DNA from: Raja brachyura
Lineage: Eukaryota
DNA length: 64,000 nucleotides
Assembly: GCA_963514005.1 (NCBI GenBank)
Contig: OY740800.1
Span: forward strand, 27,404,001 to 27,468,000
Direction of reading: 5' to 3'
Shown here: piece by piece, positions 263-64,000 of the stretch
Position numbering within the stretch: position 1 is the stretch's first letter
Layout of the letters: every line of letters starts with the position of its first letter
Made by a program: the position numbers and the translations under genes
The notes under the pieces: model-generated
What the model saw: only the letters and a program-made list of their open reading frames with translations
The model's database searches: none
Told to the model about the DNA's origin: nothing

Positions 263-396
263 AGTGTTAAAGAAGGAACTGCAGATGCTGGAGAATCGAG
301 GGTTACACAAAAAGCTGGAGAAACTCAGCGGGTGCAGCAGCATCTAAGGAGCGAAGGAGATAGGCGACGTTTCGGGTCGAGACCCTTCTTCAGACT
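263..396 (-). mobile_element. Penelope-like (PLE) derived short repeat with minimal hammerhead ribozyme core (young copy)
   Basis: Minus strand reads CTGAAGA-A-GGGT-CTCG-ACCC-GAAA-C-GTC (366-393). Differs from the reverse complement of 60346-60476 by one 1-nt indel. Confidence 0.85.
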
Positions 397-955
397 CACT
401 TGCGCATGCTGACCAAGGTGCCCCATCTAAGCAAGTCCCATTCGCCCACGTTTCCCATCCATGTACCTGTCCATGTGTGTTTAAAATGTTGTTATTGTAC
501 CTGCCTAAACTAGGATAGGAAAGGTTACGAAAGGTTTAGAGGGTTAAGGACCAAACACGGGAAAATGTAACGAGCTAAAATGGGGTATCTTGGATGAGTT
601 GGACCAAAGGGCCTGGCTTGGTGCTGTAAGACTCTACCTTCTCTGGCACCATCCTCTGTGTGAAAAAGTTGCCCCTTGGGTTTCTATTAAATCTTCCTCC
701 TCTCACTATAAACCTATGCCCTCTGTATCTTAATTCCCCAATTCTGGGTAAAAGACTCTGGACATTAACCCTGTCTATTCCCTTGATGATTTTATACACC
801 TCTACAAGACCACTGGTCAGCCTCCTGTGCCTCAAGGAATAAAGTCCGAGCTTGCAAAACCTCTCATAGCTCAGGCCCTCGAGTCCTGGCAACATTATTG
901 TTAATCTTCTCTTCGCTCTTTCCAGCTTAATGGCATCTTTCCTATAGCAGAACAC
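397..955 (-). mobile_element. CR1-clade (HER1-like) LINE 3' fragments
   Basis: ORF 575-958 gives the CR1 ORF2 C-terminus (GLSYE..LGLYSL..RRL..GHRF..FFTQR) followed by the typical 3' UTR. Confidence 0.85.
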
Positions 956-1094
956 CACCTTACTTAAGGAAGGAGATGCCTGATAAGGGGTAGCTGCAGA
1001 GAAGGTTCACCAGATCGACTTTTTGTTTAAAGGAATGAGATGTAATCCTGTTGAAGCATACAGGATTCTGAAGGTGAATGACAGGTTAGAGACT

Positions 1095-1530
1095 GATAGA
1101 ATGTCACGAGGCATATGTACCGGCAATGGAACAACAACATTCTAACTTGCTGCAGCTTAACAGGCTCGTAAACACATTTACACGCTGACAAGTATATAAC
1201 AATCCATAACATGATAAATTGATAATCAGTAATATCAGTTATCCATAATAGTGCAAAACCAAAATCCATAGTGCAACCAAATAAAATGTCCATAGTAAAT
1301 CATAGTTGCTGAGGTTAGTGTTTTGCAGGGTTCAAGAGCCTTATGGTTTTTGGGAAGAAGGTGTTCTTGAACCTGGAAGTCCAGGTTTTCAGGCCTTCTT
1401 CCTGATGGTAGCGGCGTGATGAGAGCGTGACCAGGGTGGTGTGGGTCTTTGATGATGCTGGCTGCCTTTTTGAGGCAACGCTTCCTGTAGATCTCTTCGA
1501 TGTTGGGGAGGTCGGTATCCATGATGGACC
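1095..1530 (-). mobile_element. Rex1/Babar-like LINE 3' fragment
   Basis: ORF 1235-1522 contains DLPNIEEIY..RCLKKAASIIKDPHHPGHAL..LPSGRR, a recalled C-terminal motif of this clade. The same motif recurs at 20075-20290 and 38640-38880. Confidence 0.7.
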
Positions 1531-1619
1531 GGGGAATGTCTATCTCTCTGCGTATTTCTCATTAGTTCCGAATGTCTCTTCAAGAGGGAGTGTATGGGGG
1601 GGGGGGGGGGGGGGTCATT

Positions 1620-2070
1620 TCTGAATAAGTTCATAAATTGTAGGAGCAGGACTAGGCCATTCAGCCCATCAAATTCACACCACCATTCAATTATGGCTGA
1701 TCTATCTTTCACTCACATTCTTTCTCTCCCATTCTCATGCCTTCCCACCATAACCCCGGACACCCGTACTAATCACAAATCTATCATTCTCCACCTTAAA
1801 AATCGCCCTTGAGTTGGCCTCCACAGCCGTCCGTGGCAATGAATTCCGCAGATTCACCACCCGCTGACTAAAGAAATTCTTCCCCATCTTCCTTTCTAAA
1901 GGTACGTTCTTTTATTCTGAGGCTATGGCCTCTGGTCCTGGAATCTCCCACTAGTGGAAGCATTCTCACCACATCCATTCTATCCAGACCTTTCACCGAT
2001 AAGTTTTCAATGAGGTTCCTCCTCATCCTTCTAAACTCCACTGGTACAGGCCCAGTGCCATCACACGCTC
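1620..2070 (-). mobile_element. CR1/HER1-like LINE 3' fragment
   Basis: Similar to the reverse complement of 3950-4390. Confidence 0.8.
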
Positions 2071-2759: not shown

Positions 2760-3290
2760 TGATGGGGATGGGGATGGGGGGGGGAAGCATAAATAGACGG
2801 GGTGGGGCAAAGCCTGGCAAGAGATAGGTGGATACAGGTGGGGGGGAAGGAGTTGCTTGGCAGATGGGTGGAGCAAATGACAATAGACAATAGGTGCAGG
2901 AGTAGGCCATTCGGCCCTTCGAGCCAGCACCACCATTCAATGTGATCATGGCTGATCATCCACAATCAGTACCCCGCTCCTGCCTTCTCCCCATATCCCC
3001 TGACTCTGCTATTTTTAAGAGCCCTTTCTAGCTCTCTCTTGAAAGCATCCAGAGAACCTGCTTCCACCGCCCTCTGCGGCAGAGAATTCCACAGCCTCAC
3101 TCACCACAAAGGCTGGAGGTGAAGGTGGCAAAAGGATGTCATATATGGAGAGAAGAGGAGGGAAATGTAAAGCCAGAGGGTGGGATGTGGGTGGAAAGGG
3201 TCAGGAGGAAGGGGAAGAGGGGTGATAAAAGGGAAAGAGGGGCTTGGGGGTGTGAGGGGGGGGGGGGGTGGGAGACATAGTGGGTGTTCG
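2760..3290 (-). mobile_element. Penelope 3' remnant interrupted by a young HER1-like 3' end (about 2878-3100)
   Basis: Flanks match the 14100-14340 repeat. The insert starts with the GACAATA tail repeat and matches 20612-20830 and 24170-24380. Confidence 0.7.
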
Positions 3291-5080: not shown

Positions 5081-5240
5081 TTAGGAACATTAATGTAAAG
5101 AGGGATTTTGAAGTCCAAGTCCATTATACCCTGAAAGTAGCAACACAAGTATATGAAGTAGTAAATAAGGCATATGGCATATTTGCCTTTATCAATCGGG
5201 GGATTGAGTCTAAAAGCTGGTAAATCACGTTGCAGCTTTA

Positions 5241-5332
5241 TGAAGAAGGGTTTCGACCCAAAATGTTGCCTGTTTCCTTCGCTCCATAGATGCTGCCTCA
5301 CCCGCTGAGTTTCTCCAGCAATTTTGTCTACC
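5241..5332 (+). mobile_element. PLE-derived hammerhead repeat (degenerate core)
   Basis: TGAAGAAGGGTTTCGACCCAAAATGTT. Probable TSD GCAGCTTT / GTAGCTTT (5232-5239, 5333-5340). Confidence 0.75.
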
Positions 5333-6469
5333 GTAGCTTTTTGAAACTTTGGTTAAGCCACATTTAGAGAACTGTGTGCAGTTCTGGTCACCCCACTTGG
5401 GGATGGATGTGGAGGTTATGGATTGGATACACAAGAGGTTTACCAGAATGCTGCTTGGTTTACAGGGTATAAACTTTAAGGAGGTTGGAGAAACTTGGAT
5501 AGTTTTCTCTAGAACATTGGAGGTTGATGAAGACCCGACAGGGCTGCGCAAGATGTTAGCGAGACCACACTTGGAGTCGTGTGTGCAGTTCTGGTCATCC
5601 TGCTATAGGAGGCGTCTTTAAGTTGGAGAAGATGCACTTCCCGAGTGCAGCGTTTACAGGGACGAAGACTTGAGCAACACTTGTACTGACCTGCTCTCAT
5701 TGGACAGCAGCTGTAAACAAACCTCCCAACCTGCTGCTGTGACACCATCACCATATTAACTTTGCATCACCTATTACTCAGGAACGCCATGCACAGCTGG
5801 TCAGAACACTTGTAAATCACAAAGAGTCGGAGGAACTCAGCCGGTCATGCAGCATCTGTGGAAGGAATGGACAGATGAGGTTTCTGGTCAGGATCCTCCA
5901 TCAAACATCACCCATTCCCTCCACAGATGCTGTCTGACCCACTGAGTTCCTCCAGCACTTTGTGTTTTGCACAAGATTCCAGCACCTGCAGTTTCTTGTG
6001 TCTGCAGGAATACCTGTAGTTCATCACCGTGTCCTATGCTCAGTGACATAACGAATCCGGGCATTGCCACATGCACTAAACACAATCCTGTCATCGCTGA
6101 ACATCAAGTCCTCCAGTTTGACCCAGGCCGATGTAATTGATGCCTTTTAATAACTGAGTTTGAGTGTTGCTTTTCTTGATTTCCTTGCCAATTAATAATA
6201 GGTTGTAAGTGGGTGCTGAATCCGTCAATGATTCAACGGTGTCATGCGTGGATTAAGTCTGGAGTGGATGGAATGACTAAAACAACAGCAGAAACACCGA
6301 GAATTTCAAGAAACAGGAGAATCAAACAGCTGGAAAATCTGTATAAAATTAGGCTTTTTATAGATTGCTTCCTGCAGAGTGACAAACTGCAGAAAGATCA
6401 CGCCACTGAAGGCCATGCTCAGCGTTCATCTGATGGACGAGGGTGCAGAGAATTCCTATAGCTCCGAAT

Positions 6470-6850
6470 TTCTAGGGCAGAATTAGGCATTCAGCCTATC
6501 AAGTCCACTCCGCCATTCATTCATGGCTGCTCTATCTCGTTCTCAACCCATTCTCCTGCCTTCGCCCCATAACCCTTGGACACCCTTACTAATCAGGTAT
6601 CTGTCAACCTCTGCCTTAAAAATATTGCCCTGGCCTCCACAGCCGTCTATAGCACCCCTTACAATCTCATTGACCCAAACTACTTTAAAAAAATGTTTAT
6701 TTACTCTCTGGGTAAAAAGTTTTTTCAGCTCAGTCTTAAATGACCTCCCCTTTATTCTCAGACTGTGGCCCCTGGTTCTGGACTCACCCAACATTGGGAA
6801 CATTTTTCCTGCATCTAGCTTGTCCAGTCCTTTTATAATTTTATATGTTT
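6470..6850 (-). mobile_element. CR1/HER1-like LINE 3' fragment
   Basis: ORF 6543-6803 reads MFPMLGESRTRGHSLRIKG..FTQRV. Confidence 0.85.
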
Positions 6851-7049
6851 CAGCAGTTCAAGCAGCATCCATTGGGAGAAGAAACGGTGAACAGTTTGTA
6901 TCAGGACTGAGATTGGAGAGGGGAGGGATGAGATAGGAGCAATAGATTCAGATTGAAAAAGTGTTCCGACCCAAAGCGTAGTCTGTCCATTCCATCCACA
7001 GATGCTGCCTGACTCACTTTGTTCCTCCAGCACTTTGTTTTTGCATTTA

Positions 7050-7700: not shown

Positions 7701-8852
7701 ATAACTGACCAATTCACCACCACTTTTACCCATCCAGTTCAGAGATGGGCAATAAATCCTGGCCTTGCCAATAACACCCAGATCATGACAGATGAGGGGC
7801 AAGCTGGGTACTGTGAAGATGGGGTTTTGATGGCATTGTGGCCAACAACTCAAACATTTTCCCTGAAATTCGTCGATAGCCGCTTCAGACTTTGATTCAT
7901 TTTCTATTACTAAAATCATTACATTTATCTTTAAATTAATCCCAAAAGCAATTGGGTCACGTAGAATATATTACATTTACGATATTTATTCAGAGAATTG
8001 CACAGAAACCTTCAAAGTATCGATCTGGTGTAAAATTTGCAATCCCAGATTATCAAATATTAAGTTGCTGGCAGATTTCACCAAATGTTAAATGAATCAG
8101 AGCCGCTCTGTGGGCTCTGAATAGACATGAGGCAGAGCTGACTCTCAATATCACCTCTCATGAGCCATCAGCGTTTGTCAATGCAAAACCTTGGCGTTAC
8201 AATCCATGCTTCACATCGAATTAGCTCTCATTAAAGTGACATTGTGTGCCTTTCAAGTTGTTAATCGGCCTCAGTGTTGGTCAGTCCCGATGTCATTGTA
8301 ATCAGAAAAATTAATCACACGAAGCAGCTATAGAAACAAAAAGCATTCATTCGATACAATGCGACTTACGCATTTGTTCCTCGTTAATTGCCATTATGGG
8401 TCCCATTTTAAAAGGCAGTGCTGATTAATAACAGTGTCCCTGTTACCATACTGATCATTAGTCTTGGTCGATCTCTGAGATGCCTGAGTGAAAAATTGTA
8501 TTGCAGAATTAAGCCATTTATAAGTGGACACAAAATGCTGGAGTAACTCGGTGGGTCAGGCTGCATCCCTGGAGAACATGGATCGGTGAGGTTTCAGTTC
8601 GGGACTCTTCCTCGAAAAGAAGAGGTACTTGAGATGCGGCATGGAGATGGTGGCCAAAAGACCTGTTTGTGTCCCATGGGTTGCTCTATGTTCTGTTGCT
8701 CTATGATTCTATCTGAACTGCAATTTTACTTATTTTGTCGACTGAATAGTGGTTTAACTTAAAAATAGCAAGTTATGAGTTCAAAAAGACATAAAACCAC
8801 GTCAAATGTTGACTGAATCACTAAACTCTCAAGGAGCTGGATATATTTCTTG

Positions 8853-12037: not shown

Positions 12038-12739
12038 TTTCTTCTCTTCTCCCCACTCCTTAAACAGCTCTGCAGTTACTTACAGATTCCAGGAGCTTGC
12101 ACAGCAGATGCCAAGGAGGTGGACCTCAGCATCTTGATGTCAAGTAATTGATCAATTCTTAATAATATCATCAGCATCCATCATGCATTTAAATTACAGC
12201 TGTCCTTGCCCCCTGTTCCAGAAGAGAGCATAAGCCCTTGGATGCTGTCTAGCTAGCAAGCACAGTGATTCTAACTTCTTCCAGTCAGCCTGCACTCTAA
12301 TTAGGACACGATATGATAGAACTTTATTTATATATAGGGGATGTGCAAAGAATGGGGGGGGGGGGGGGGGGGGGGATGCTCCGCAGTTTGAGGAGCATCC
12401 TCCCCTCCAAGACCACCTCCCGTGGATCCAACTCCGCCCCCAGGACGGAGCCAGCCTTCCTGATGAGTTTGTTCATCTTAAATTACAATGAAACAGAGCA
12501 CAAGGGAGACCCCCACTGCCCTCAGAGTGTACAGGAGTCTACATCCATCTAAGAGCAGGGAGAAGGCATGGATCCATGATCCACCACATTCAACCTGCCA
12601 TCCGCTCACTGTGTCTGTGCATCCGAAAGCATTTGGGTCTTACCTGGCCCTTCCCATTCCCACCTTCTCTGCAACGTAAAACAAACTTGTTTTCTCACTT
12701 TCGCAGTTCTGATGAAAGGTCTTTCACCTGAACCAGAAG

Positions 12740-13974: not shown

Positions 13975-14420
13975 CGGGCACAAGGAATTGCAGACGCTGG
14001 TCTACAAAAAAGACACAAAATGCTGGAGTAACTCAGCAGGTCAGGCAGCATCTGTGGAGAACATGATGTTTCGGGTCAGGACCCTTCTTCAGACTGATTG
14101 TGGTGAGGGGTGGGGGGGGGGGGAGAAAGCAGGAAGGGAGTTGAGGACCGGACAAAGCCCGGCAAGTGACAGGTGGATACAGGTGATAAGGGTTTTTCAC
14201 CGGCAGATGGATGGACAAGAGGGTGGAGTTAAAAAGACAAAAGATGTGATTTATGGATAGATGTGCGAATTGTGAAGCAAGAGGAAGGAATATAAGTGGG
14301 AGGGGAGGGGAAGGGGTAAGAGCAGGGTCAAAAGGAATGAGGGGAAGTTGGTGTTTGAAGGTTAGTTGCTGAAAACTGTAGAATTCAACGTTCCTACTGT
14401 TGGGTTGTAAGCTGCCCTTT
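13975..14420 (-). mobile_element. Penelope-like element 3' region including hammerhead core (14065-14092)
   Basis: End of a GIY-YIG-like coding tail (GGCAGCTTACAACCCAAC..GTTGAATTCT on minus), pyrimidine-rich UTR, then CTGAAGAAGGGTCCTGACCCGAAACATC. Confidence 0.75.
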
Positions 14421-15883
14421 CGGTATCGATCAGCCCTGATCGTACTGAATAATGGGGCAGGCTTGCGGGGCCGACTGGCCTACTCCTGCTCCTGTTCTCC
14501 AATGTTCTTGGCTTTGTAGCCCAGCCTCTGTAGAACTATTGGAAACGTTCAGTCTCAAACTCTTGATGTCGCCCTGGATGGGTTTGCAGGCATGGGGCAC
14601 TGGGACTAATTGGATGAGCCCTCTGCTGGTTCTACGACCCAGTGCAAGGCTGGGAGGGGCAGTGCTGAACCATCCACCACTCTCTGCCGCCCACCCAGAG
14701 GGGGCTAGAGCCCAGCTGAGGGGGGCTCTCTTTTCCGTGCAATTCTTGGCAACAAGTGACCACTTAGGCAGCAAATGATGTGAGACGCACTTGTCTCTCT
14801 CTACCTGTGGCAGATGAGAACCACTGTACCTCGATGTGCAGTCTAGTTTCCCTGACAACAGACGCACTTTGGTTCAAGATTTAGTTAAAAAAAAACACAA
14901 CAGCTCAACAGCCAGCAATTCTGAAGCTGAAACCACATTTAAGTGATATTCCCTTTTTTTGGCAGGCTTGCGAACATCTGTGAATGACAAACGAGGTTTA
15001 GTAAAAGCTGCCAATTGTTCCATTGATTGATGATTATGTGTCCAGAGGCACTTAAAGAGAAATAGCATGGCATGCAAATAGCTGCTTGCACCCTGTACTC
15101 CACATACACAACATATTTCAGCAGTCTATCGCTATCCTCCTAAAGAGTCAGACCAACCTTCTGGCTATTTACTACGCCACCGAACTTTCAAATTACAAGA
15201 TAAAATGCGGCGTATCCAGTCAAACCCAGTAATCTGAAGCAGAAACTATTACTTATAGATATTCACCCTCTTCTCTCTGCTTGGAATTATGCTGCAGTCA
15301 AGCCTCCTGTCCTCCCTCTCTTGATCTGCCCTTGTTTCTTCCCCTCCTCTTGTGGTCATCCAGCATTCCATTAAACTGTGAGCAAAACACAAAGTGCTGG
15401 AGGAACTCAGCGGGTCAGACAGCAACTGTGGAGGGAATTGACAGGTGACGTCTCGAGTCAGGATCCTTCTTCAGACTGTGTTTCCTTTAAACCATGTTTC
15501 CCTTGACCCTTCTCCGTGGGAACCTGTTCCACACCCTTGTTACTGTCCACATACAGGTGTTCTCCTGGATTTACCCGGATTGATTAGTGATCGAGAGCCT
15601 ACACCCAATCCCAGGCTACCCATCCCAACCCCCCCCCCCCCCTCCCCCCCTTCAGGAAGAGAAAACTGCGCTCACTCCTTCCAGTTCCGCAGCCGCTTTT
15701 CAATCCACGTGGCCATTATCACTTCACTCAAGGGCTTTAATTTTGTCAACAAGTTCATTATGTTGCAGGTTAACAACTGCTTCTGAACGTGAACATTAGG
15801 CACCTTACTAATGAAAGTAATCAGCAACAAAGCTGATGTCTGTGGCCGGAATCAGCAGCCAGACAATGGCAGAGGATGACTAA

Positions 15884-16162: not shown

Positions 16163-16440
16163 GGAATCAATGTTCCTACCGTTGGGTTGTAATCCACCTG
16201 AGCGGAATACAAGGTGCTGTTCCTCCAGTGTGCGTGTGGCCGCACTCTGGTAATAGAGGAAACACGGGACAGATAGATTAGTATGGGCATGGAAACGGGA
16301 GTTAAAATGGTCAACGACAGGGAGAACGTGCCACAAGGCAGTGGAGCAGTCTGAGAGCCGGACAGTTTTAGCAACTGTGCAGCTTGGAGGGTAGGGAGAG
16401 CCCATGTTTGAATTCCACTGGGTCGAACTTCCGGTGATTT
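16163..16440 (-). mobile_element. Penelope GIY-YIG endonuclease C-terminal remnant
   Basis: ORF 15980-16405 contains VVDHFNS..H.HTNLSV....TRTLEEQHLVFR.G.LQPNGRNID. Confidence 0.75.
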
Positions 16441-16469
16441 ACGTTCAACCCAACATCCTTTGTAGAAAT

Positions 16470-18325: not shown

Positions 18326-19999
18326 AGTCTGAGTCTGTAGAGTCTGAAAAAAGGTCTCGACCCGAAACATCACACGTTCCTTCGTTCCAGAGATGCTGCC
18401 TGTCCCACTGAGTTACTCCAGCATTTTGCATCCGTCTTCAAAGTCTAAAAGATATCCATTCACCCCATTGTGTTCCTGCCAGACAAATAAAGAGTTATTT
18501 AGCTTCCTCGTACACCGAGGGACAGTGTTAACACCCTCGCTGACAGCGAAACCCAGACTCTACCACTCCCCTCATCTCCTCTCCTGCAATCACTGCACCT
18601 CTCAAATGGCTGATCTACTGTAACCTCAACTCCCCACTCCTCTCTATCCCCGGTAACCTTTCACTGTTCACCTAATTGTATGACTGACCTGGCCAGTGAA
18701 TTTCACTACACCAATTGGTAATAAATGAACTTATGAAACTCCCTGATCATGAATCAACTCGTCTCTGGCTGAAAAATATTCACAGATTCTGCTTCTGCTG
18801 TCCTTTGAGAAAAATAAATCCAAAGATCCAGGATCCTCTGAGAGAAAATAAATATTTCTCCTCCCTTCTGTCTTACATTGGTGAGAATTTATTTTGAAAC
18901 AGTGACCCTGAGCTCTCGGATTCTCCCATAAGAGAATTCACCCTCTCCAGACCCGTCAGCATTTCACGTGTTTCAGTGAAGGCCCTTCTGATATAACATA
19001 GCTCATGGAACAGTACAGCACAGGAACAGGGCTTTTGGTCACAATGTACGCGCTGAACATAATACCGTTAAACTAATCTCCTCTGCCTGCACATGATCTA
19101 TATCCCTCCATTCCCTGCATATCCATGTGCCCATCTAAAAGTCTTTTAAAATGCCACTATCACACCTGCCTCCATCTCCACCCCTGGCAGCACCCAGCTC
19201 TCACTGTGTGAAAAAACTTGCCCTGCACATTTCCTTTAACCTTTACCCGTCTTACCTGGATGAGTTGGGCCAAAGGAGCTGTTGTACACCTCTGTAGAAG
19301 CTCTCACTGCCAGTTTTCCCTTTTCTTAGCAGTCTCCTCTCATATTAATTTTTTCTTCTTGTTATTAATTTTTGGATAGCCTCTGCTGAACTCTAATATC
19401 TTCCCTTGTTTTATGTGGCAACATTCTGAGCCTTTTCCTTAAAGTCATGCTGTCTCTAATTGCTCCTGTAATCCATGGCTGGATCACTGAAAGTCCTGTA
19501 AACCTTGAGGTGTTGGCCATTGCCTTTCTATGGACAACCAATCCTTGACACTTTCAGTGTTCCTTCTCCTTGCACTGATTTCAGGCTGAACTTCAGCCAC
19601 TTGCACACTTGGTGTAAAATACTCTTGCGTTTTCTTGATTTTAATCATTTGCCCCAAACATAACCCCTGACATTATGTTTAAATTCTCCATCACCCATCC
19701 TCCATGAATCCAGACAACAAAAGGTGCTGCTCAGCAGGTCAGGCAGCGTCTGTGGAAAGAGAAAAATACAAATCAACATTTCAGGTGGAAATCCTTCCAC
19801 AGATGCTGCCTGACTTGCTGTGTGTTTCCAGCACTTTCTATTTTTATTTCAGGTTTCCAGCCTCAGCATTATTCTGAACGTCAACAGAATGTGTCAGTTG
19901 TGCCCCTCTTGCAGTCTCAAAGTGCCTTTATTTTCATTGAAATTTAAAGAGATTTGGCGAGTCACCAAATTCACCAAGAAACTTTAATGAAGTGCTGTC

Positions 20000-24742: not shown

Positions 24743-24744
24743 CA

Positions 24745-25360
24745 CAAGGAAGACAGACACAAAGGGCTGGAGTAACTCGGAGGGTCTGTCAGCATCTCCG
24801 GAGAAAAAGGATGGATGACCCGGGAAAAAGGTCAGAACAAAGCAGGACCTGCAACAGATGAACAAGGAAGGATGGAGCCCATAATGGTCCATTGTTTGTT
24901 TTTGCCAAACATTATTTTAATCAATTATTTACCAAAATGATATGTACAATGCAAAGCAATACCAACAAACCCACCACCATTATACAAAGTATGACAAATA
25001 TTCTTAAATACGAAATAAACTAGTATACAACTAATCAGCATCCTTATTAAGGATGCTTTAATGGCCCATTATTGGCTGGGGAAGAGGTAATGTCGAAGAG
25101 GTACAAGGATGCGAACTGTGGAACTGGTAGGATGACTAGGAAAGGAATGCAGGCTTACTTGAAATTAGAGAAATCAATTTTCATACCGTTGGGTTGTAAG
25201 CTGCCCAAGTGAGAAATTAGGTGATGTTCCTCCAATTTGCATGTGGCCTCACTCTGACAGTGGAGGAGGCCTAGGACAGAAAGGTCAGCATGGGAATAGG
25301 ATGGGGCGTTAAAATGTCTGGAAGCTGGGAGATTACGTAGGCCAAGGCAGACTGAGAGAA
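24745..25360 (-). mobile_element. Penelope-like 3' remnant with internal insertion
   Basis: GIY-YIG tail-like sequence at 25150-25320 (GGAGGAACATCACCTAATTTCTCACTTGGGCAGCTTACAACCC on minus) and the terminal repeat at 24750-24815. Confidence 0.65.
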
Positions 25361-25780: not shown

Positions 25781-26219
25781 TGAAAGTGCGATCCAATTGG
25801 TCTCCTGTGCCCTGGGAATTTTCCTGCATTTATCCATTCCCTACTGATGAAGTCTAATTGAGTCAGAAGAAGGGTTCCGACCCGAAACATCACCTATTCA
25901 AGTTCTCCAGAGATGCTGCCTGACCCATTGAGCTACTCGAGCATCTATGTTGTTTGAGTCTATTCCCTGCTGGTGGCTTCAGTTGAATCTGCTCCCCTCC
26001 CCTCACCTTCCAAACCAAACCAACCCCCTGTGTACAGTGAAGCCTCCCCTCCCTGGGTCTGCCACTTCCCCTCTGGTATCATCTCCTGCCGCTGGGAATG
26101 GACTCTTCTCCCAAAACCACTTTCCTTTCGAATGCCTCATCAGATAGTTGACTGAGCTTTCCCGCTCAATCTCAGCCTCTCCATTCTCGGAATAAATTTT
26201 TGGTCGGCCACATTCCTAG

Positions 26220-34972: not shown

Positions 34973-36299
34973 TGCAGGATTTAAGATTACTGACACATCC
35001 TGGATAAACAACAAAAACATTTTTGTAACCTGTGTTTTCACACAAGGAGATAAAGTCCAAGAAAGTAAAGTTGCCTTGAAATGTTTTGAGTTTATCCAAT
35101 ACAAAGTGCGTGGAAAAGAATTGTGAGAATGAAAATACATGAAAGGTAGATAGCGAGGGGGTTCTGATGATTCATTTCCTGCCCAGACACTGCAATGAAA
35201 TATAATGAGTCACACACTTAAATGCGGCCTTACCATTAGATAACAAACCATTTCCTCAATGGAACAGAATATTTGGCAACTTGGAATCCTGCGCATGGAA
35301 TGGAACCCACGCTCAAGTTAATATTAACTTAATAAAGGAAAGCATGGAGATTTGGAGATGTGTGATGCTTGCCATAAGGGTAACAGAATACCAGGAATAA
35401 GTTCCTATCTTTTTATTAAAGACTGTTCCTAAATCTCTCACATCAATCAGAGGAAGCAGTAATTTAGCATCCTTACCAAACGGTGGCCGAAATGTAACAA
35501 AGCTACTTTTCAGCTGAAGGCTAACTGAAGGGTTGCACCTTGAACAGGGCAGCATCATTCAGACCTAAAGTACTGGAGTAACTCAGCAGGTCTGGTTGCT
35601 GAAGAAGTGTACCGACCCGAAACATCACCTATCCATGTTCTCCAGGGATGCTGCATGTCCTGCTGCGTTACTCCAGCACTCTGTGTCTATGTAAACCAGC
35701 ATCAGCAGTTCCTTGTATCTACAATACTCATTCAGTCCTGAAGAACGCAGCAAGAGCGAAGTACACCCCCCCTGTTCTCCATCAGTCTGAAGAAGGGTCG
35801 CAACCTGATATGTCTTCCCATTCCCTGCAGAGATGCTGCCTGACCTGCTGAGTGTTTCTAGCAATTTGTTTTTTTGCTCCAGATGCCAGCATCTGTAGTC
35901 TCTTGTGTCTCCATTGTGTTTATGTGGCTGGTCCTGTTCAGTTTCTGGTCAATGGTGACCTCTAAGACAGTGGGGGGCTCAATGATGAAAATGAAATCTT
36001 TACTTCTTACACTAAATCAAAATAGACATGATTTAGTCTAGAATAAAGATATGGAAATGTTAGAGGGATATCAGGCCACCATACATTGTGTAAAACGATG
36101 TTAGAAAAATACTTGCCACGTGCGACAAATTAGTGACAACAATGAAAATAAAATAACACGTCTCTACATGGGCTGGTGCCTCCTTATCTTGAACACCAAT
36201 TAAATAAAAACTTGCTTCTTTGGAAAAGAACTAGTCGAGTCTTGTATTAAGTAGCAATTCAAGTGATAGTACATCACGTCTTCATTGGTAAAAATAAAT

Positions 36300-44003: not shown

Positions 44004-44132
44004 AACCCTAAAGAAGGGTTTCAGCCCGAAACGTAGCCCATTTCCTTCGCTCCATAGATGCTGCCTCACCCGCTGAGTTTCTCCAGCATTTTTGTCTACC
44101 TTCGATTTTCCAGCATCTGCAGTTCCTTCTTA
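44004..44132 (+). mobile_element. PLE-derived hammerhead repeat (mutated core)
   Basis: CTAAAGAAGGGTTTCAGCCCGAAACGTA. Flanking direct repeat AACAATTAGA (43994-44003, 44133-44142). Confidence 0.8.
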
Positions 44133-44324
44133 AACAATTAGATAACATGTCCATGTTAGTGCAAGAGGGGGTCTATGGTGTTCCATTGACGAGGTAGGAT
44201 TAGGGTTGTGTGTGTTGGTTCAAGAACCTGATGGTTGTAAGAAAGTATATTTAAGGAGCGGCCAGAGGAGGTAGTTGAGGTAGGTGTAATAACAACATTT
44301 AAAATAAATTTTGACTGGTATATG

Positions 44325-45742: not shown

Positions 45743-48479
45743 GTATGTGCCGATACAGTCAGTGGCGGCGTCCGCGCGTTCTCGGGACAGTAGATGGGGT
45801 GGTGAGGAGAGGGGGCACTTACGGAATGCGCGCCACGCGAGAGGGCCGTGTGGTGACCTAACGGCCGCACGCTCCGGGAGTTGTGAGGTGGTGCGCGCGC
45901 CCGCTCCCGCTCCCGCTCGGCCCCTCAGCCGGCGGACGGGGTAGGGGGAGGCGCGGGAGCGCACGTCTCCCCAGGTCACGGTGAGTGGATGTCACAACCC
46001 GTGTCACACACATCGCGCCGGTTCCTCCGCGGCCCCGGGGTCCTCGAGGAAGAATGCGAGCTCCCGATCACTGAACATTTGCACGCTCCCTCACCAGGGG
46101 TGAAGTGGAATGTGTGCTCGTGACCGTGGGGTGGGGGTGGAGGAGGAAGAGGGATATCTCTGATACCTTTGGTGGACACAATATGCTTGAGTAACTCAGC
46201 GGAACAGGCTGTAACTCTGGAGAGAAGGAATGGGTGACGTTTCGGGTCGAGACCCTTCAGACATTTGGGTTTGGGGTCACTGCGGTGTGTTAACTTAATC
46301 ATGGGGTCTCCATCTCCCCCCCCCCCCCCCCCAGTGGCTTGACTGGAGGAGGAGGAGAGGGGGGGGGGAGGGTGACTGCCAGAGAGTGATGTGGTTCAAA
46401 CCCTCCTTATACAGTTCTTCTGGTCTCTCCCCCTCACTGTATTCCTCTGCCAGTTCCCTGCCTGGGCTTGGGTTAACTTGAAACATAAGAGAGTCTGTTC
46501 TCTGCACACATGCCAATTGCTGTGGGTTTCCTGAAATTTGTTTGAAATTACAACTGTAGACAGGACTACCTTTAAAATGGCTCGGACCAACAGTACTTTT
46601 CAATTTTGGAAATGATGAATTGTTGTATATGTACGGTAGGTCAGTCAGCATCTGTAAATAACTTAATGAATCTAGTGTGTAAGGCGGATGAACTGCATAT
46701 GCTGGTTTAAACCGAAGATAGACACAAAAAGCTGGAGTAACTCAGCGGGGCAGGCAGTGTCTCTGGAGAGAAGGAATTTATTAAGATAGAAGGAATGGGT
46801 GATATTTTTCAGACGGACTCGACCTGAAACATCACCCATTCTATCTTAATAAATCCAGTGTTTGGCTTATACTTTTTGATTTACTGTTCTGTTGTGCCAT
46901 CATTACAGATCTGAGTGAAGCTTTAAACTGTCTGATGTAATTCACATGAATAGGGTCAGTGTTAAGTAATGGAATAAATGCTGCAAGTACACAGGTTTTC
47001 TGTAAATAGAAATCTCGTCATCCCACAAGTGTCAAATGCTTTCTGTTGTTATTTCACTTGCAGTTATAAAATGTTCACAGTTATCTTTTGCAGATGTAGC
47101 AACTGAGACCATTCAAAGGGTTGTTGACTTTGTTGATATTTAATCTATTGGAATACAAAATTATAATCTGAGTATCATGTGGACAAATATATTGAAATAT
47201 CATCTGGCAGCATAATCCTACAATTGCGAGTCATATTTTGAATAGAAACCACAGTTTAATGAAATCCTGTACTTCAAAGTGCATTAGATTTTCATGGGAT
47301 GGAAATAGACTGGAATGAGTTCCATCTCATCATTTGTGGCCAGTAAGAAATGCAGGCTAGGTATAGGAGCTGTTACCAAATTGGAAGTTGGTGGGGACAA
47401 GTATTTTTGGATATGTATTTTTATGGAGCCAGTTGCTGCAAACAAAAATGGACTGAGTTTCTGTTTATATGTCTAGCTGTAATGGGCAGTTGGCACTGAG
47501 GTGCTTTAATTGACTTTATACCTCATGTTTACTGACTGTCCTCTCCTTTTGTGGCTTGTTAATCAGGATGCACACTGCAGGAATGGAAGACTTTGTTGTA
47601 TTGATTATTTCTCCCCCTTGGTATAATTACCCATGTACTTGGGAAAACTAAAGACCTATTGCTATTTAAATTGTTCACCATGTTATTTTTGGTATGGTTG
47701 AATGCTGGTTTGACAGTTAACCCAGAAGTATGTGTAGCAACTCTGTCCTGTTTATTGTGAAGTTGCACTGGAAAAGCCATGGGCTGACATTGGGAACCTG
47801 TCTTGTTTACTACTTTATCATCCCTACCCAGACAGTCTATCTATTTCATCATGGTTGGCTGATAATACCCACACAATGGGCCAAGCGGGCTCCCATCTCA
47901 GCAGAGGGGAATAAACGTGACCTTGCAGAGACTGCTCATTCAGTGGAATATTTGAAAAATGTATAAGATGAAGTGGCACTTTGTGTGGCACTGCGGTCTT
48001 TCTGTGGGAGAAAGGGAAAGCAACGTACTATGGTATTGGAAATCTGGGGGGGGGAGAGAAAATAATGATAACTTGTATATGGTCGGGCAGCATTTGTGAA
48101 AATGAAAAAGGTTATTCAAGCTTCTATTTTATGTACAGGTTGGACTCTGGGAAGTAGGTGGAAAGATTTGTGCTTGTAATTCAAGCACAAATGAATCTTG
48201 GGTATATTTTGTCAAACTGGCCTGCTTCTCAAGTAGAAATACGTTATTGATTTATATTGTTGCATGAATTTGGCTGGTTAAATATGCTTTCTTTACCTAA
48301 TCTGGTCTCGGACTCCACATTCACTAATATGGACCAACTGCCTTTTGCAATGGCCAAAAATGCTACTGGGGGAGTTGTCCAATACTGCTGCATTAAAACA
48401 GAATGAATCCAGACAGAATACCCAGCAGGATCACTGAATTTGGATGTGTCAAAGTTGTTTTCAACCATCTTAAACGTGC

Positions 48480-49840: not shown

Positions 49841-52800
49841 AGGGCGCTTAGTGTTTTATGTGGTCACAATGGACCAAGGGGTCTATGTCTATTCTATATG
49901 ACTATTGACTATCCAGGACTTGGTTAAAATGACAAGTGTTGGATGAACTCAAAATGGGCCAGGCAGCATCTGTGGAGGGAAAGGACAGATGACATATCGA
50001 GTCAGAGCCTTTTGTCAGACCGAAGAAAGATCCAGCCTACCTCATTGCACCTCTATGTGGAGCAGCCATACTGAGCCCCATATCTCAGCACTGAGTAGCA
50101 GAATCCCACTCAGTATAAATCCTCTTGGCAACTCTACGTTCCAGCCCCTTCAACCTGCAGATGCTGTTAAGTGTTTCCAGCACTTTTGTTTTTGTTTTAA
50201 AACTTTATATATTTTTTCAAACAATTTCAGAGTGATGCAGTTAAGAGGTGCATCTGCAAGATCATGATCATAGCGATGCTCTGTAGGAAGTTGATATCTC
50301 TGGAGTGGTACCTCTAAGATGGTAACTGTTAGTCTGCTATAAGCGTATCTAACTTTAAATTTGAGCTCTTGTTCTGAGTTATTTAAAGATTGCCACCACT
50401 TGTAAAAATTGCAGGCATTTCAAATTTTAATTGCACAACATATGTGTACTTTCATGCAACATTGAGTGCAATGTTGATGCTTTTTCATACGTTTTGCTTC
50501 AGTGAAAACATGAGATGGAACACATTTTAAGACTTCACCAATGAATAATTGCTGAAATATTTTCAATTTCATTTGATATCTATTCTTTCGAAAATTATGA
50601 ATATTTTAGAACCACGTAGCATGTGCACATTGTTGGATTTTGCATTCATATTTGATTTCTTTATTGAATGTATTAAATATTTAATTATTTAATTCATTTC
50701 CCCTCAAAGCCACTACCAACATCAAATAGCACATTATTCAATGTACAAACACATCATTCAGCAAACTGTAGGAGGCATAAGAATCAAACTTGCATTCATC
50801 AGTCATCTCAAGATAACAATAACATTTTTCACATTTCTGACAGAATATAACATCACTTTGAGAATAAATGATCATGGATTAAATTGACCCGTCCTAACGT
50901 AAAGCTCAGCAGAACATTGGCCCAATTTACTGTGATGATTCTTAGAGATTCAGTTCATTTACTTCACACTGCAAGAAACCTAATGCTCAGATAAAATGTA
51001 TATAAACCTAGGTTAGTTTTTGAAATCACTCCTTGAGATACTGGATAAACTGTTTTAATTATTTTATGAACACATGGACTATATAAATGGTTCCAGCTTG
51101 CTATAATTTTCCGATTCTCCAGAGATGCAACAAAGGTACCAGAGCACGAGAAGGAACCAAAGCACTATGCCCTTCTTCAAAAAGGTGTTAGGACTTGCCA
51201 GGCAATGACAGGCCAATTGGTTTTAGCTTGGTTATGTGGAAGGTCTTGGAAACAATGGGGTGATTGTGCAGCTAGTTGGACGGCAGTTCTGTGCAAAGCA
51301 GCTGACTAACTGTAGCGTGCAGGTTAGCACATTTCTGTCTTCCCACAGCTTTGCATTCCAATGGGGAAGCTAGGAACATGCTAACGATCTGATACCAACA
51401 TACCCGACCTCCTACTCTGTCACTGAGCTCAGCATCAAATCTGAGGCTGGGTGTAGTCAAGTTGAGTGAGAGCCGAGATTCAATTTGCATGAAACACACG
51501 GTGCTGGAGTAACTCGGTGGGTAGGTCCTTTTATTTTTGTAGCTGCTGAGTTACTTCAGCACTTTGTCTTTTTTGTGAACCAGCATAGTTCCATGTTTTG
51601 TAAACCAGCATAGTTCCTTGTTTTGACGGTTCATATGTGGTTTCTTAGCCCGTGGGTGTAATGCAATGCCCTGGGATCACCAACCTAGATTTACGATGCA
51701 GTTTTTTTCCTTTATTAAGCAGCATTAAAGCTTTGTTTTTATACTGCTACTTCAAATTTATTTGATCTGTTTTTAAATGTCCGATAAGCAATAAAAACAG
51801 TTTAAAGGACCTTTTTATGCACAAGCCGTTTCAATAAATGGGCTTGAGGTGGTCTGGGACGGAGCCCGAGGCTGTGTCACTAAAGGCGTAGTTGCCACTT
51901 GGGGGCCACTCTGCTTTGTGAGGTCCCGAGTTTGATTTGTAAAAGGTTATTGTGGTCATAACTGTAACCAATTGCTGTGGTTTAACAAGAATGGGCCAAC
52001 GCAAGGACACTCAACTAGATCAATAATCAGTAAACATGGCCCGTCTTGACCCGAAACGTCATCCATTCCTTCTATCCAAAGATGCTGTCTGTCCTGCTGA
52101 GTTACCCCAGCATTTTGTGTCTATCTTCAATGTAAATCAGCATCTGCAGTTCCTTCCTACACAGTCCCAATAACATCCTTGTGAATCTTTCTTTCATCCT
52201 TTCCAGCTTAATGACATCCTTCCTAAAGCTTGGTGACCAGAATTACACATTATGCTCCAAGCGTGGGCTCACCTACAGTTTGTACAAAGGCTATATGATG
52301 TCCCAGCTCCTGTACTTGATGTCCTGACCGATGAAGGCAAGTGTACTAGACGCCTTCACCTCCCCGTCTGCCCATGTTGTCATTGTCCTAAAATGGCGGT
52401 ACGTGCTCTCAAGCTTTGTATTTTCTGTTCAACGGAATACCATGCCTGATCTGATTGTAATCTCACAATCCTGTCTACCCTCTGTACTGTAACTTATCTT
52501 CCTCAAGTTAATGGGTTTTAAATTGCACAAGAGATGGGTTTTAAATTGCACAAGAACCCAAGAAAGAGGCAAAGGTAGACCACTGAAGTCTTTGAGACAA
52601 CTCAATCCCCACCTCTCATATCTGATCAAAATTGTTCCCCTTTATTTTTGCATTGTGATCATGGCTTCTAGATTCTCCCACAAAATGAACCATGTCCACC
52701 TCCAAGACCCCTTAGGAGCTTGTGTTTCAATCAAACTCCCTCTCCCTCTTCTGAACTCCAGGCCTATCCTGCTCAACCTTTTCATGTTAGGCAACCCTTC

Positions 52801-56840: not shown

Positions 56841-57592
56841 AATCAAGAACAGGAATACACCTTTTTTTGGTTGTCCCTTTGAGCTGCATCACCATTAAGA
56901 TCAAAGCCTTCTTGTACTATCCCCGTGGCCCTTAACTTCCGATGGTACTATATAAATTCAGACTCTGGACATTCCAGAGAGTAAGGTAGAGCTAGTTGAC
57001 CGATTCACTCCTAACCAGAGTGGTGGAGAAAAAATAGCACTGAAATTAAGGAGGACTATTAGGTTTTTTTTCCCTCTTTAGCTGTAATACTACATTCTGC
57101 ACTGTTTCCTTTCTCTTTTTGCACTGTGGTGCTCTTGGTAGGATCTGCCTGGATAGTATGCAAAACAGTTTTCACCAAATCTCTGTCACCTGACAATAAT
57201 AAATCAATATATCAAAGTAGGAGCTGGAAAATAGAGATTTAATTTAGTCCATGGTACCTCTTCCGCCATGATTAATTCATGGACAAACTGAAAATATTTT
57301 CACATTTTGTCCCTGCATTCCTTGATGCCTGTGGCAAAGAATCGCAGATTCAATGAAAATTAGAAGAAAAATGCAGATCTCTAGAAATCTGCAACAAAGC
57401 AGAAAATACTGGAAAAACTCAGCAGTTCATGCAGCGTGAAGGGTCTTTGTCGCAGATATAACACTCTTTCTCTTTCCATCTACCCTACCTGACAGTTTCT
57501 GTTGTCTGTATATCATCTCAGATGTAAAGTATTATCTAGCATCGAAGGTATTTTGTAAAATAGTTTTAAATTTCTGTTACATTTTTAAATTA

Positions 57593-60345: not shown

Positions 60346-60476
60346 TCTGAAGAAGGGTCTCGACCCGAAACGTCGCCTATCTCCTTCGCTCCTTAGATGC
60401 TGCTGCACCCGCTGAGTTTCTCCAGCTTTTTGTGTACCCTCGATTCTCCAGCATCTGCAGTTCCTTCTTTAACACT
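60346..60476 (+). mobile_element. Young PLE-derived repeat with intact minimal hammerhead core (60347-60374)
   Basis: CTGAAGA-A-GGGT-CTCG-ACCC-GAAA-C-GTC. Possible TSD TAAACT (60339-60344, 60476-60481). Confidence 0.88.
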
Positions 60477-60789
60477 AAACTGTTTGCATGCTGTTTGCCA
60501 GAATTACAAATGGAATCTCATTTTTGCATGCTTATTCATCTGAGGAACATTTAATTAAGCAACAGTGCCTTTGGCAGATTCTTGGAGCACGTGATTTAAA
60601 GTTGGCAGTTTTAATTATTCTGAAACTTTGCTTTTTTTTTGCAACAGTTTACTCGCTTGTACTCCTACACTGGAGGAACTACATATTGTGGATGGGGCAT
60701 CTTGGTCAGCATGGACAAGTTATGCCGAACAGCCTGTTTCCATGCTGTCTGACTCTGTGACATATAGCATGCCATACATTGACTTCAGC

Positions 60790-61085
60790 TGTTCCATTTT
60801 AACAGCCCCTCCATACTGTGGAACGTTATTTACTGACTACACATCACATGCGACAAACAACCGCTGGTTTTCCTCTACGCTGGAGTTACCAAATGCAGAG
60901 TGGGCGACCACTTTGCAGAATACCTTCTTCGGTCCACCAGCATGTCTCAAACTGTTCAGTTCCCTTTCACTTCATTACTCTAATGGATTCCCACCCGAAC
61001 CTCAATTGCAAGCCTGAAATACACAATCTAATTTTCCCTCCATGAAGATTACTGCCCTTGGGAATCAATATGAAATTCAAAATTC
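60790..61085 (+). mobile_element. Degenerate Penelope GIY-YIG remnant
   Basis: CTCTACGCTGGAG..CCAAATGCAGAGTGGGCGACCACTTTGCAGAA resembles LYIGETKRRLGDRFAEH-type coding sequence. Confidence 0.55.
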
Positions 61086-61564
61086 AATATTTGTAAGACA
61101 TTATATCTTTGGATTAAAGATTTAAACACTGGATATAAATAGGCAGTGCAAATCGCGGTCGACACAAGTTTACAATAAATCAATAAACCGCTTGTCTTTT
61201 TGTTTTGGTAAATTGCTATAATTTAGACAAATCTTGGCAGACGTGGACTTAGACTAAGTTGATTACAGGAAGCCAAATCCAGTTAACCATTCCACTTTAA
61301 AAGCTGCTACATAACCATTTAAGTTTAAATTGAGGAGCCCGGTATTTGAAAGGAGATTGTAAATTTAACAATCTTGATGCTAGTTTTGAAGTAAATAGAA
61401 ACACACATCAGAATCTAAACATAACAGGGTAAGGGAAATATTAAGTGTAGTGGGTTTTATTCTTGTAGTCCTAGAATGGTGAAGAGGCAATTAAGCTTGG
61501 TGAAAGATCTATCCAATTATTCCTTACCCCACGCATCTCTCTCAATTTCCTGGCTCAAATACAA

Positions 61565-62190
61565 GAAAGAAACTTGTATTCATGACCTCGGGACATGTGA
61601 ACTACTTTTCAATCAATGAAGCACAACTGAAGTGTTAAAAAAGGAACTGCAGATGCTGGAAAATCGAGGGTACACAAAAGGCTGGAGAAATTCAGCGGGT
61701 GCAGCAGCATCTAAGGAGCGAAGGAGATAGGCAACGTTTCGGGCCGAAACCCGGCCCGAAACGTTGCCTATCTCCTTCGCTCCTTAGATGCTGCTGCACC
61801 CGCTGAGTTTCTCCAACCTTTTGTGTACCCCCAAGCACAACTGAAGAGCAGTCACTGTTGTAATGGAGGACACGTGGCAACTGATTTACACATAATACAA
61901 TCCCACAAACAGAAATGTGATATGATTAGATAATCTGTTTTTAGTGATGTTAATTAAGGGATAAATACAGGCCGATCACTCTGGACAGCTCCCTTGCTGC
62001 TTGAAATAGTGTCCGATTCTTTTGCATCTGCTTGAGAGTGCAAATGGGGGCCTGGTTTAGCATCTCAGTTGGTAGATGGAATCTTTGACTGTCGAGCAAA
62101 CCAACCCTCCCCCCACTTTCCACGCCTGTGTAACACTGGAGTGTTTGCTCATTTCTTGTGCTTAAATCGCTGGGGACTTGTACTTGACAG
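61565..62190 (-). mobile_element. Deu-domain SINE (SacSINE1-like) interrupted by a PLE palindrome
   Basis: Minus strand TATTTATCCCTTAATTAACATCACTAAAAACAGATTATCT..TTTGTGGGA..CATTACAACAGTGACT. Confidence 0.7.
61633..61832. mobile_element. Palindromic PLE insertion with 14-bp TSD
   Basis: 79-bp arms at 61668-61746 and 61752-61830 (2 mismatches), 5-nt spacer. TSD AAGCACAACTGAAG (61619-61632, 61833-61846). Confidence 0.92.
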
Positions 62191-64000
62191 ATGAAAAGAA
62201 TGTCTTTCAGTAACTGGTGGAAAGCCACAGGGAATGCTGTGGGACCTCGGCTATTTATAACCTGTTAATGACTTGTATAAAGCAACTGCCTACTCCAGGC
62301 AAAGTTGTTGATCATATGAAGATAAGTGGGTTAGCAAGTTATGAGAGGATACAAAGATTCTGCAAAAGGATTTAGATAGGATACGTGAGTGTGCAAGAAA
62401 TTGGCAGTATAACGTGGGAAATGTGAATAAGGGTCCCAAGCAGAAACGTCACTCCTCCCCATCCTTTTTCTCCAGAGATGCTGCCTGACCCACTGCAATT
62501 TCTCTAGTTTTTCTATTCCTCGCTCGCACTACCTTGTACTTGCGAATAGCACACAAACAAAGCTTTTCACAGTATCTTGATACACGTGATAATAAGAATC
62601 TGATACCAATACCAATTAGGAATCTGAAATCTTCTACACTAGAATTAAGGAGGTGGAGTCATTAAATAAATCCAAAGCAGGCATTTGACCCAAATGGTAC
62701 TCAAAGGTGATATAAGTAATATTGAGGTAAAAGTTTGATTGGTCATGATCTAATGAAATGGTGCAACATGCTGGAGGAACTCTAGCCTGTTCTAGCTCCC
62801 AATTCTTGTGTTCTTTAACAGCTTAATAAATCGTTGTTTCAAAGGGATGGTTGCTTACATAAAAGTGCTGGCCAAGTATTTTGTGGTTTATGATGTTGGA
62901 TTGTTGGTCTCTGGTACTGTGTAATATGAGGAGTTAGAATTTGGACAAGACAGAAGTTTTAGTTGTACCAGGTGGGACTGGAAGTGCTTGAAATAAAAAA
63001 AATATTATAAAGCTTTCAATATTTATTCTGTTGTGCTACAGCAAGTAAGAATTTCATTGCTCTGTCTGGGACAGATGACAATAAAACACTCTTGACCCTT
63101 GAATAATTTGATGTTTACTGCTGGTTAAGGTAATGCATGTCTGATTTCAATATTTTTTTTTTAAATGTATGCTTTTAAAAAGTGTTATTTCTTCATGTTC
63201 CAACTGGATCTAATTTGCACAACACCAATTCCGTTAATTAGAGGAGGCGGGCAGAGGTTACTGAACGCTAGTAATTTGTGTAAATTGAATTGAATTAAAT
63301 AAAATTGTATTTGGTTTGCATTACCGTGGATCTCATGGTACAAATAGAACTAATTGATTTTATTAATATAAAACTCTACAGTACTGCCTATTGACTAATG
63401 CAGTGCCTAATTATTGTTGGTCTGACGAGGTTAGATACTGTAGTTTAAGACAGTAAATGTCTAAGAATGCCAGCTGCTTTTCCTTCCTGTGACTCGGGTC
63501 TGGCTTTGGTAGGATAATTACGTTCATTGGTTAATGTACAATTACATTACCCATGTCTATAAATCATTTAATTATTACTACATTCAATAACTACAACTAC
63601 GGTTGCAATATGAATCGGCTCTGAAATGTAATGTATCTGCATGGCTATGACCATTGGGAATAGGAATATTTCAATAAGTCGGCTATCTTTTCAGTCAGCT
63701 GTTTCAGAATCACATTCAATGTAAAACAGTTTATATGGAACAGTGCAAGGAAGGTCCAAAATTTATTTGAGATTTTTATTTATTCCTCCTGGAAGCTGGT
63801 GTCAATGAACTGGGTTCAAATTGTAGATTGTCGTGATTTGCTTCATGTGTGGCATTCACTGTTGTCTCCGTTCCCTTCGTGTGTTTCTTAACTATGTTGG
63901 CAATACTTTGATGTTACTTCATTAAATAACTACTTTGTTGTCCAGCAAGCTGAAAAAGTATATACAGGTATCTACCTCACAAACCTGATGTGACCTGATC

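Follow-up and report, generated by a model that had tools for sequence, protein, structure and literature searches.

Minimal hammerhead ribozymes in the ends of Penelope-like elements (PLEs), thousands of them dispersed, have been known since 2014. PLE insertions are reported to show 5′ truncation, inverted head-to-head copies, an optional tail and target site duplications (TSDs) (PMC8557442; PMC3846280). For an anole element, the reported features are internal initiation of reverse transcription at two sites bounding the tail, extension of both strands, a hammerhead that cleaves only with protein, and hammerhead mutants that still insert (PMC11167929). In Drosophila Penelope, transcription begins 46 nt ahead of an intron of 75 nt, whose end is at helix I (PMC4209133; PMC2377424). 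Here we analyzed a window of 64,000 nt from Raja brachyura (GenBank assembly GCA_963514005.1, contig OY740800.1, positions 27,404,001–27,468,000, forward strand), in which a short repeat headed by a hammerhead core is abundant. The repeats are real, PLE-derived and of a known kind, and as such the finding is ordinary. About 6% of the window (3750 of 64,000 bp) consists of PLE ends, so that the genome offers a very large sample of insertion junctions.

The window was searched at E < 1e-3 with a profile seeded from 8 copies (39 matches), a second profile trained on 25 trimmed copies (40 matches, 3750 bp in total) and a covariance model built from 23 copies (37 matches); training copies match the profiles and the model by construction. 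The best E among 20 block shuffles, the control for the second profile, was 0.21. Strand bias was absent (21 plus, 19 minus). A sequence-only reading of the same DNA had claimed more than 20 copies, a number that is exceeded here, and had traced them to PLEs; it was right about the repeat and its origin but did not notice that some copies are tailed or paired head to head, nor the TSDs, the remnants of the parent and the sharp 5′ edge. All counts of copies, ends, pairs and TSDs below refer to this single window, core statistics refer to 23 aligned core-bearing copies, and positions within the repeat are numbered from C3 of the core.

From its 5′ side the repeat unit consists of 4–6 upstream bases common to the copies, the core, in which A9 is followed by an additional A (23/23 copies, as had been noted before), a 4-bp helix II, GAAA, a two-base palindrome, NUH with the cut following +27, a linker that varies, a conserved block (~65 nt) reaching ~+90, and an optional tail of ~30 nt that runs to ~+120–131. 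There are several subfamilies, and two near-identical young copies, 263–397 (−) and 60346–60477 (+), lie 60 kb apart. In their subfamily the end of the tail is complementary to the element's 5′ end, and in the predicted fold this pairing closes the RNA into a rod with the core buried. The 3′ domain of the 14 tailed copies fits an outer stem of 8 bp around an inner hairpin of 4 bp, with 93% of cells paired, compared with 24–54% in slid controls; as the structure was derived from the same copies, this supports it weakly, and no covariation was found among the 14. We found no tRNA head in the repeat and rejected an origin from a tRNA-type short interspersed nuclear element (SINE) on that ground. 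Translations of the repeat matched no protein.

The PLE origin can now be read within the window itself, because a GIY-YIG endonuclease C-terminus, a spacer and the hammerhead repeat are contiguous there. Two copies, 14092 (−) and 24751 (−), extend upstream through a spacer into the GIY-YIG C-terminus. In the former, the last protein codons are followed by a pyrimidine-rich spacer of ~275 nt and then by the core; in the latter the order is the same (protein end, spacer, 3′ block), with the core deleted. The parent is accordingly ordered as GIY-YIG end, ~300-nt spacer, minimal hammerhead, conserved ~65-nt block and optional ~30-nt tail, and the derivation of the repeats from Penelope-like elements is supported.

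A two-sequence GIY-YIG profile matched 253 proteins at E ≤ 1e-3. Among the 150 matches listed, at least 26 fit the GIY-YIG/CxxC pattern, and at least 10 of those the linker pattern. When 21 matched proteins were scanned, GIY-YIG (PF01541) was found at E ≤ 0.01 in 8, one of them above the curated cut-off, and several others were host gene models with a mis-joined piece. Seven aligned relatives have a CX2-5CXXC linker, two Cys between the GIY- and YIG-like strands and downstream His residues (CCHH). Reverse transcriptase (RT) thumb sequence precedes the endonuclease in relatives P0017 and P0136, and one relative was placed by Atlas among RT/GIY-YIG clusters (0.96–0.97). Gene model P0031, an unrelated database entry, reads from an endonuclease end to spacer to repeat, the order seen in the window (E 8e-5); the repeat was matched at E < 1e-3 by 1 of the 150 endonuclease relatives listed. 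The linker and CCHH motifs are seen in the nearest relatives, and the remnants in the window start downstream of them. By themselves the GIY-YIG pieces of the window gave no GIY-YIG match in Pfam; no such family was matched by the 395 of 411 open reading frames (ORFs) of ≥ 58 aa that were scanned (16 low-complexity ones dropped), and a PDB search gave no match. The ORF scan returned four RVT_1 matches, which from family features in their translations we take to be elements lacking long terminal repeats (non-LTR elements) and unrelated to the repeat. Judged by its relatives, the parent was probably an endonuclease-bearing PLE with a Neptune/Nematis-type linker, a choice between these two being a matter for an RT tree. 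P0001, P0007, P0032, P0073 and P0130 are ordinary vertebrate gene models in which a PLE endonuclease C-terminus figures as a predicted exon; these exons are probably annotation artefacts.

We then considered the state of the hammerhead core. The column majorities contain all core letters, the extra base after A9, G10.1–C11.1 and the palindrome 15.2–16.2. All core letters are kept in 8 of 23 copies, and core, helix II and palindrome together in 4. Helix I has 0–3 bp, where the published range begins at 2 bp (PMC4209133); the earlier caveat, that helix I is only 2–3 bp and monomers may be inactive, was right. The five cores that the sequence-only reading ranked as best are indeed at 366–393 (−), 14065–14092 (−), 32222–32249 (−), 38222–38249 (+) and 60347–60374 (+), but the ranking holds less well: a C–A mismatch at 15.2–16.2 breaks the palindrome of 14065–14092, helix II of 38222 has 3/4 pairs, and helix I of 60347 has 1 pair. 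The cores that it listed as degenerate are present within 1–2 nt. Among them, 12709 does mark a core, but one of the CUGAUGA type in a stub without 3′ block that is not a profile match, and 28779 is actually the best-formed copy.

The hint of selection that lies in a stem kept while its loop varies was not supported. Column identity averages 0.87 over the core, against 0.85 over the downstream block and 0.66 over loop II, and non-CpG departures from consensus number 21/205 in the core and 41/506 in the block (Fisher p = 0.38, comparing individual copies and not subfamily consensi). Loop II is more variable, but two of its four bases are a decaying CpG: the dinucleotide reads CG in 10 copies, TG in 5 and CA in 6. 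The palindrome is under the same decay (CG 11, TG 4, CA 5), as is G12, and the variety of loop II is largely CpG decay. None of the four helix II pairs is changed on both sides in 23 copies. No measure of hammerhead covariation exceeded shuffles, a comparison to which 23 decayed copies bring little power, and RNAalifold predicted no consensus pairs. A covariance-model search had been proposed as a check; with Rfam, neither the window as a whole nor two short stretches of it yielded a hammerhead at E ≤ 10. The microRNA-type Rfam matches proved to be inverted pairs or low-complexity tracts. The scattered copies decay neutrally.

The 3′ ends are bimodal: 22 of the 40 matches end at +80 to +109 (13 at +90 to +94) and 18 at +110 or beyond, with the second profile itself spanning −4 to +121. 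Neighbors within 60 nt form 9 head-to-head pairs, 2 tail-to-tail pairs and 1 direct pair, and tandem copies of the unit are absent from the window. Six head-to-head pairs have one tailed and one untailed arm, two are tailless and in one a tailed arm faces a stub; none of the nine is two-tailed (the 33025 arm was scored by eye). TSDs of 10, 11 and 14 bp were identified in three insertions and are short or absent in most others, the 14-bp TSD enclosing the youngest head-to-head pair as a single unit. Junction repeats of 11, 10 and 7 bp were found among 24 solo copies, compared with a maximum of 8 in 552 mismatched controls.

The 5′ ends pile up. Twenty of the 24 solo copies extend to +2 or further 5′, and 18–19 begin within ~9 nt just 5′ of the core. 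Only 14092 clearly enters the known spacer and 34216 is marginal, upstream extension being testable against four spacer pieces only; three copies end short, at +10, +11 and +49, and 24751 has an internal deletion. The cleavage site is the start of none of the 24 solo copies. Common sequence fades out at −4 to −6, the two youngest copies, which are near-identical, part at −1, TSDs place two 5′ ends at −4, and a spacer-only fragment (2762–3290) ends at the same point. Either the template has a defined end here, the pile-up suggests, or RT meets a strong stop. We found no published account of the edge or of this lineage in the literature listings and abstracts searched, subscription papers and Repbase aside.

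On this evidence it is likely that the repeats are the extreme 3′ ends (end of the pseudo-LTR (pLTR) plus optional tail) of several endonuclease-bearing PLE subfamilies, inserted much as described for the anole PLE. The protein would nick target DNA and RT would begin inside the RNA at one of two sites, producing the two 3′ ends. Uncleaved RNA would be copied through the hammerhead, usually with a halt just 5′ of the core. Extension of both target strands, or fold-back of the cDNA, would then give a head-to-head pair under one TSD, typically with one tailed arm. Any role of the hammerhead would lie in the parent RNA, as a dimeric or protein-assisted ribozyme, and the scattered copies would be dead on arrival and decay neutrally from then on. 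The copies are most likely inert 3′-terminal fragments from internally initiated reverse transcription of uncleaved RNA, with internal priming on uncleaved RNA suggested by analogy.

Several points weigh against this account. The window holds neither an RT-containing or full-length parent nor a full pLTR–ORF–pLTR element, and the protein searches recovered no full-length parent; of the autonomous RT plus GIY-YIG parent sought by the sequence-only reading, the window retains GIY-YIG remnants only. Just 2 of the 24 solo copies have a TSD above every control, and 8 have none. The pile-up of 5′ ends is not what ordinary random 5′ truncation would produce. Finally, the mechanism is taken over from in vitro work on an element of the Poseidon clade, and the evidence comes from one window.

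The 5′ edge may be caused by RT stalling or fold-back, by run-off or by dedicated short masters. Stalling would mean that the template is long and that RT halts on leaving the folded hammerhead into the C-rich tract, or that its cDNA snaps back; this is possible, although we lean against it. A C-run lies directly upstream in the parent, the bases that open the core can pair with the block ~45 nt further downstream, and inverted junctions sit on that complementarity (19716/19792) or on helix II (32949/33025, 61641/61751), whereas folding z-scores are weak (−2.2 to +1.75 in 12 copies) and two copies went beyond the point. Run-off, which is possible but rather doubtful, would have the transcript start a few bases before the core and internally primed RT run off to leave a short copy of fixed length, with long copies coming from the downstream terminal repeat; it would refine the favored explanation and not replace it. 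The 5′ ends are placed as such a start would have them, at +2 or beyond in most copies and at −4 where fixed by TSDs, and we take the CAGU context before the core to resemble an initiator (Inr). Internal promoters in PLE pLTRs (PMC2377424) and an Inr-like motif (PMC3846280) have been reported. However, the Drosophila start lies well upstream, the ends here scatter over ~9 nt, and the trained profile itself stops at −4, with four spacer pieces to compare. We regard as unlikely a short element that is self-propagating but non-autonomous, of SINE or retrozyme type, with a ~130-nt RNA of its own mobilized in trans. Its uniform length, its subfamilies, the two young copies far apart and the pairings of the 3′ domain and of the two ends fit this idea, and retrozymes have been proposed as PLE derivatives (bioRxiv 2026.07.22.740005), but the repeat lacks tandem arrays, a tRNA head and a canonical helix I. 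Moreover, its 5′ end lies before the core and not at the cleavage site expected of a ribozyme-processed monomer, the parent-linked copies have the same end sequence, and the 3′ domain is without covariation.

Whether the dispersed hammerheads could be active ribozymes, possibly acting on host transcripts, is a separate matter, and we hold it to be very improbable. Four of 23 copies do keep core, helix II and palindrome, 28779 is predicted to fold to a hammerhead-like minimum (P(helix II) 0.91–0.95), and minimal PLE hammerheads are reported to cleave weakly as dimers (PMC4209133; review PMC6765202). Against this stand the short helix I, the lack of a dimer partner in cis and the folding predictions, which come from a nearest-neighbor model blind to tertiary contacts and protein help: the active-type dimer is 10–40 kcal/mol less stable than the cofold minimum in 13/13 copies tested, and P(helix II) exceeds 0.8 in 3 of 13 copies and is ≤ 0.06 in the two youngest. 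The core shows no excess conservation, the copies show no strand bias, and one intact young core sits sense-strand within a probable intron. Ribozyme activity of the scattered copies is not supported, and we infer that they are inactive.

Within the favored explanation, in which the copies are inert 3′ fragments, we tentatively raise a further idea that we think fairly unlikely, namely that the short copies are the fossil record of a strong-stop-like PLE step in which RT starts within the RNA, at ~95 or ~125 nt from a 5′ end fixed just ahead of the core, and runs off. Most insertions would then be a fixed ~100/130-nt unit and head-to-head pairs the two-strand product of a protein dimer, which is equally tentative; that each arm comes from a different start site is again a doubtful suggestion. 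If true, such a step would explain the thousands of solo minimal hammerheads in metazoan genomes and would mean that the ribozyme does not cut the copied template. The 5′-end pile-up and the pattern of one tail per pair could be used genome-wide to test PLE copying and the role of the ribozyme.

The spacer has features of its own. A GT donor-like GTAAG overlaps the endonuclease stop codon at 25153–25160 (−), and ahead of the core at 12690–12708 (+) lies a pyrimidine tract with CAG, the two together outlining a possible intron in the terminal repeat, comparable to the Drosophila intron with its end at helix I. The spacer-only fragment 2762–3290 (−) comprises almost all of the sequence between the ORF stop and the CAG ahead of the core and may have arisen by deletion or as a retroposed intron. 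In a variant of the strong-stop idea, the spacer may be an intron, with GT at the stop codon and CAG before the core, and this fragment the excised intron after retroposition. A spliced template as the origin of the 5′ edge is not favored because the copies show no common upstream exon. The features are collected in the table.

Table. PLE-derived features in the window (window positions; C3, first numbered base of the core)
Feature	Positions	Strand	Remarks
Young solo copy, tailed	263..397	−	Intact core 366–393, palindrome, helix II 4 bp and helix I 2 bp; near-identical to copy with core at 60347
Spacer-only parent remnant	2762..3290	−	Score 169 vs shuffle maximum 71 against 14092 spacer (local alignment); other repeat inserted ~2881–3103; ends ATCAG, start point of short copies
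Solo copy, untailed	5240..5335	+	Core begins at position 0–1; possible 6-bp TSD
Head-to-head pair	5811..5998	.	Minus arm untailed, plus arm tailed
Plus copy, degenerate core (C3 6953), weak minus fragment opposite	6850..7047	.	
Solo copy, untailed, core broken	8521..8613	−	
Core-only stub, CUGAUGA type	12680..12733	+	After pyrimidine tract ending CAG; without 3′ block; assigned by eye
Hammerhead, 3′ block and tail of long copy	13981..14097	−	Core intact, palindrome broken
Parent pyrimidine/C-rich spacer (3′ untranslated region)	14098..14371	−	Contiguous with core
Last codons of PLE GIY-YIG endonuclease	14372..14425	−	87% over 38 nt to 25206–25169
Solo copy, untailed, mutated GAAA box	15381..15478	−	
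GIY-YIG C-terminal remnant, isolated	16166..16324	−	
Solo copy, untailed, G8 mutated	18340..18438	+	
Old head-to-head pair	19716..19868	.	Arms overlap 12 nt; plus arm tailed
Spacer (AT-rich insert) joined to 3′ block, catalytic core deleted	24751..25154	−	
GIY-YIG C-terminus with stop codon	25155..25361	−	50–63% identity to C-termini of nearest retrieved relatives
Solo copy, untailed, U4 mutated	25860..25951	+	
Solo copy, tailed, core broken	28567..28693	+	
Best-formed hammerhead, untailed	28776..28870	+	Core intact, helix II 4 bp, 15.2–16.2 U–G, helix I 3 bp
Solo copy, untailed	31150..31244	+	Core letters intact; helix II 3/4
Solo copy, untailed, intact core	32157..32253	−	11-bp TSD 32146–32156/32254–32264, placing 5′ end 4 nt before C3
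Compound of two head-to-head pairs	32949..33269	.	First junction centered on helix II hairpin
Solo copy, tailed, first box broken	34217..34335	+	
Old solo copy, partial tail	34585..34700	−	
Head-to-head pair	35559..35715	.	Plus arm (C3 35599) tailed
Solo copy, tailed	35783..35908	+	7-bp TSD ends 5 nt before C3
Solo copy, untailed	38216..38316	+	Core intact; helix II 3/4
Old copy, truncated	38365..38446	−	
Solo copy, tailed	44008..44133	+	10-bp TSD
Solo copy, untailed, first-box deletion	46168..46262	−	
Rearranged head-to-head insertion	46690..46844	.	Minus arm tailed; plus arm a stub
Old solo copy, untailed	49932..50022	−	
Short head-to-head pair, coreless	51490..51591	.	Plus arm tailed
Solo copy, tailed, 5′ end inside helix II	52043..52157	+	
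Old 3′ fragment, partial tail	57372..57437	−	
Young solo copy, tailed	60346..60477	+	Core intact, helix I 1 bp; possible 6-bp TSD
Young head-to-head insertion	61633..61832	.	Minus arm tailed, plus arm untailed; single 14-bp TSD 61619–61632/61833–61846 (by eye)
Old solo copy, untailed	62423..62511	+	

The surrounding DNA is rich in fragments of long interspersed nuclear elements (LINEs). A non-LTR retrotransposon remnant of ~2 kb at 41650–43620 (−) (RVT_1, E 4e-9) belongs to a family distinct from the abundant CR1-like pieces, and RT fragments of further LINE families, with weak RVT_1 matches, lie at 16395–17164 (+) and 39005–39905 (−). Many LINE 3′ ends, presumably CR1-like, are present (3656–4297, 20600–21200, 24335–24775 and 36300–36800). 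A second abundant interspersed repeat of ~150 bp, probably a SINE, has copies that are 69–81% identical at 15950–16080, 17198–17333, 18166–18297, 32473–32600, 34798–34957, 40500–40649 and 57725–57877. The segment 45320–46060 contains a CpG island, a CCAAT box, a GTCACGTGAC E-box, a 44-bp tandem repeat and a donor-like site near 45744. A plus-strand gene probably has its promoter and first exon here, in which case the copies beyond the segment would be intronic.

The core resembles the metazoan PLE hammerheads of Cervera and de la Pena (2014; PMC4209133) in CUGANGA with an extra base, G10.1–C11.1, GAAA, a palindromic 15.2–16.2 without loop 3 and NUH, and in occurring mostly as single dispersed motifs. 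Against the table in that paper, a helix II of 4 bp and a helix I of 2–3 bp are at the short end; the searched part of its supplementary text contains no chondrichthyan terms. This fit to the consensus supports the earlier assignment of the core as a putative minimal type I hammerhead of the PLE kind. Non-LTR retrozymes (PMC7229834; bioRxiv 10.64898/2026.07.22.740005) are likewise short, non-coding and PLE-related with a type I hammerhead, but they form tandem arrays, with canonical hammerheads in PMC7229834, whereas the repeats here are solo or inverted and have minimal cores.

Among endonuclease-bearing PLEs, Neptune and Nematis (Craig et al, 2021; PMC8557442) share the GIY-YIG domain, CCHH and CX2-5CXXC linker (here in relatives), 5′ truncation, head-to-head inverted copies and a 30–40-nt tail at one end. 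In contrast to that account, no microsatellite targeting was evident here by eye, and a sharp 5′ edge was not seen in passages of that paper. PAc, a Poseidon element of Anolis (Frangieh et al, 2024; PMC11167929), is of another clade and its ORF starts at stem II, whereas the subfamilies here differ by a 1-nt indel near stem II and show no conserved frame or protein match. As in PAc, two 3′ ends bound the tail and copies span the cut site; the distances are similar, the ends lying ~65 and 95–105 nt downstream of the cut here, and 85–92 nt downstream at the main site of PAc.

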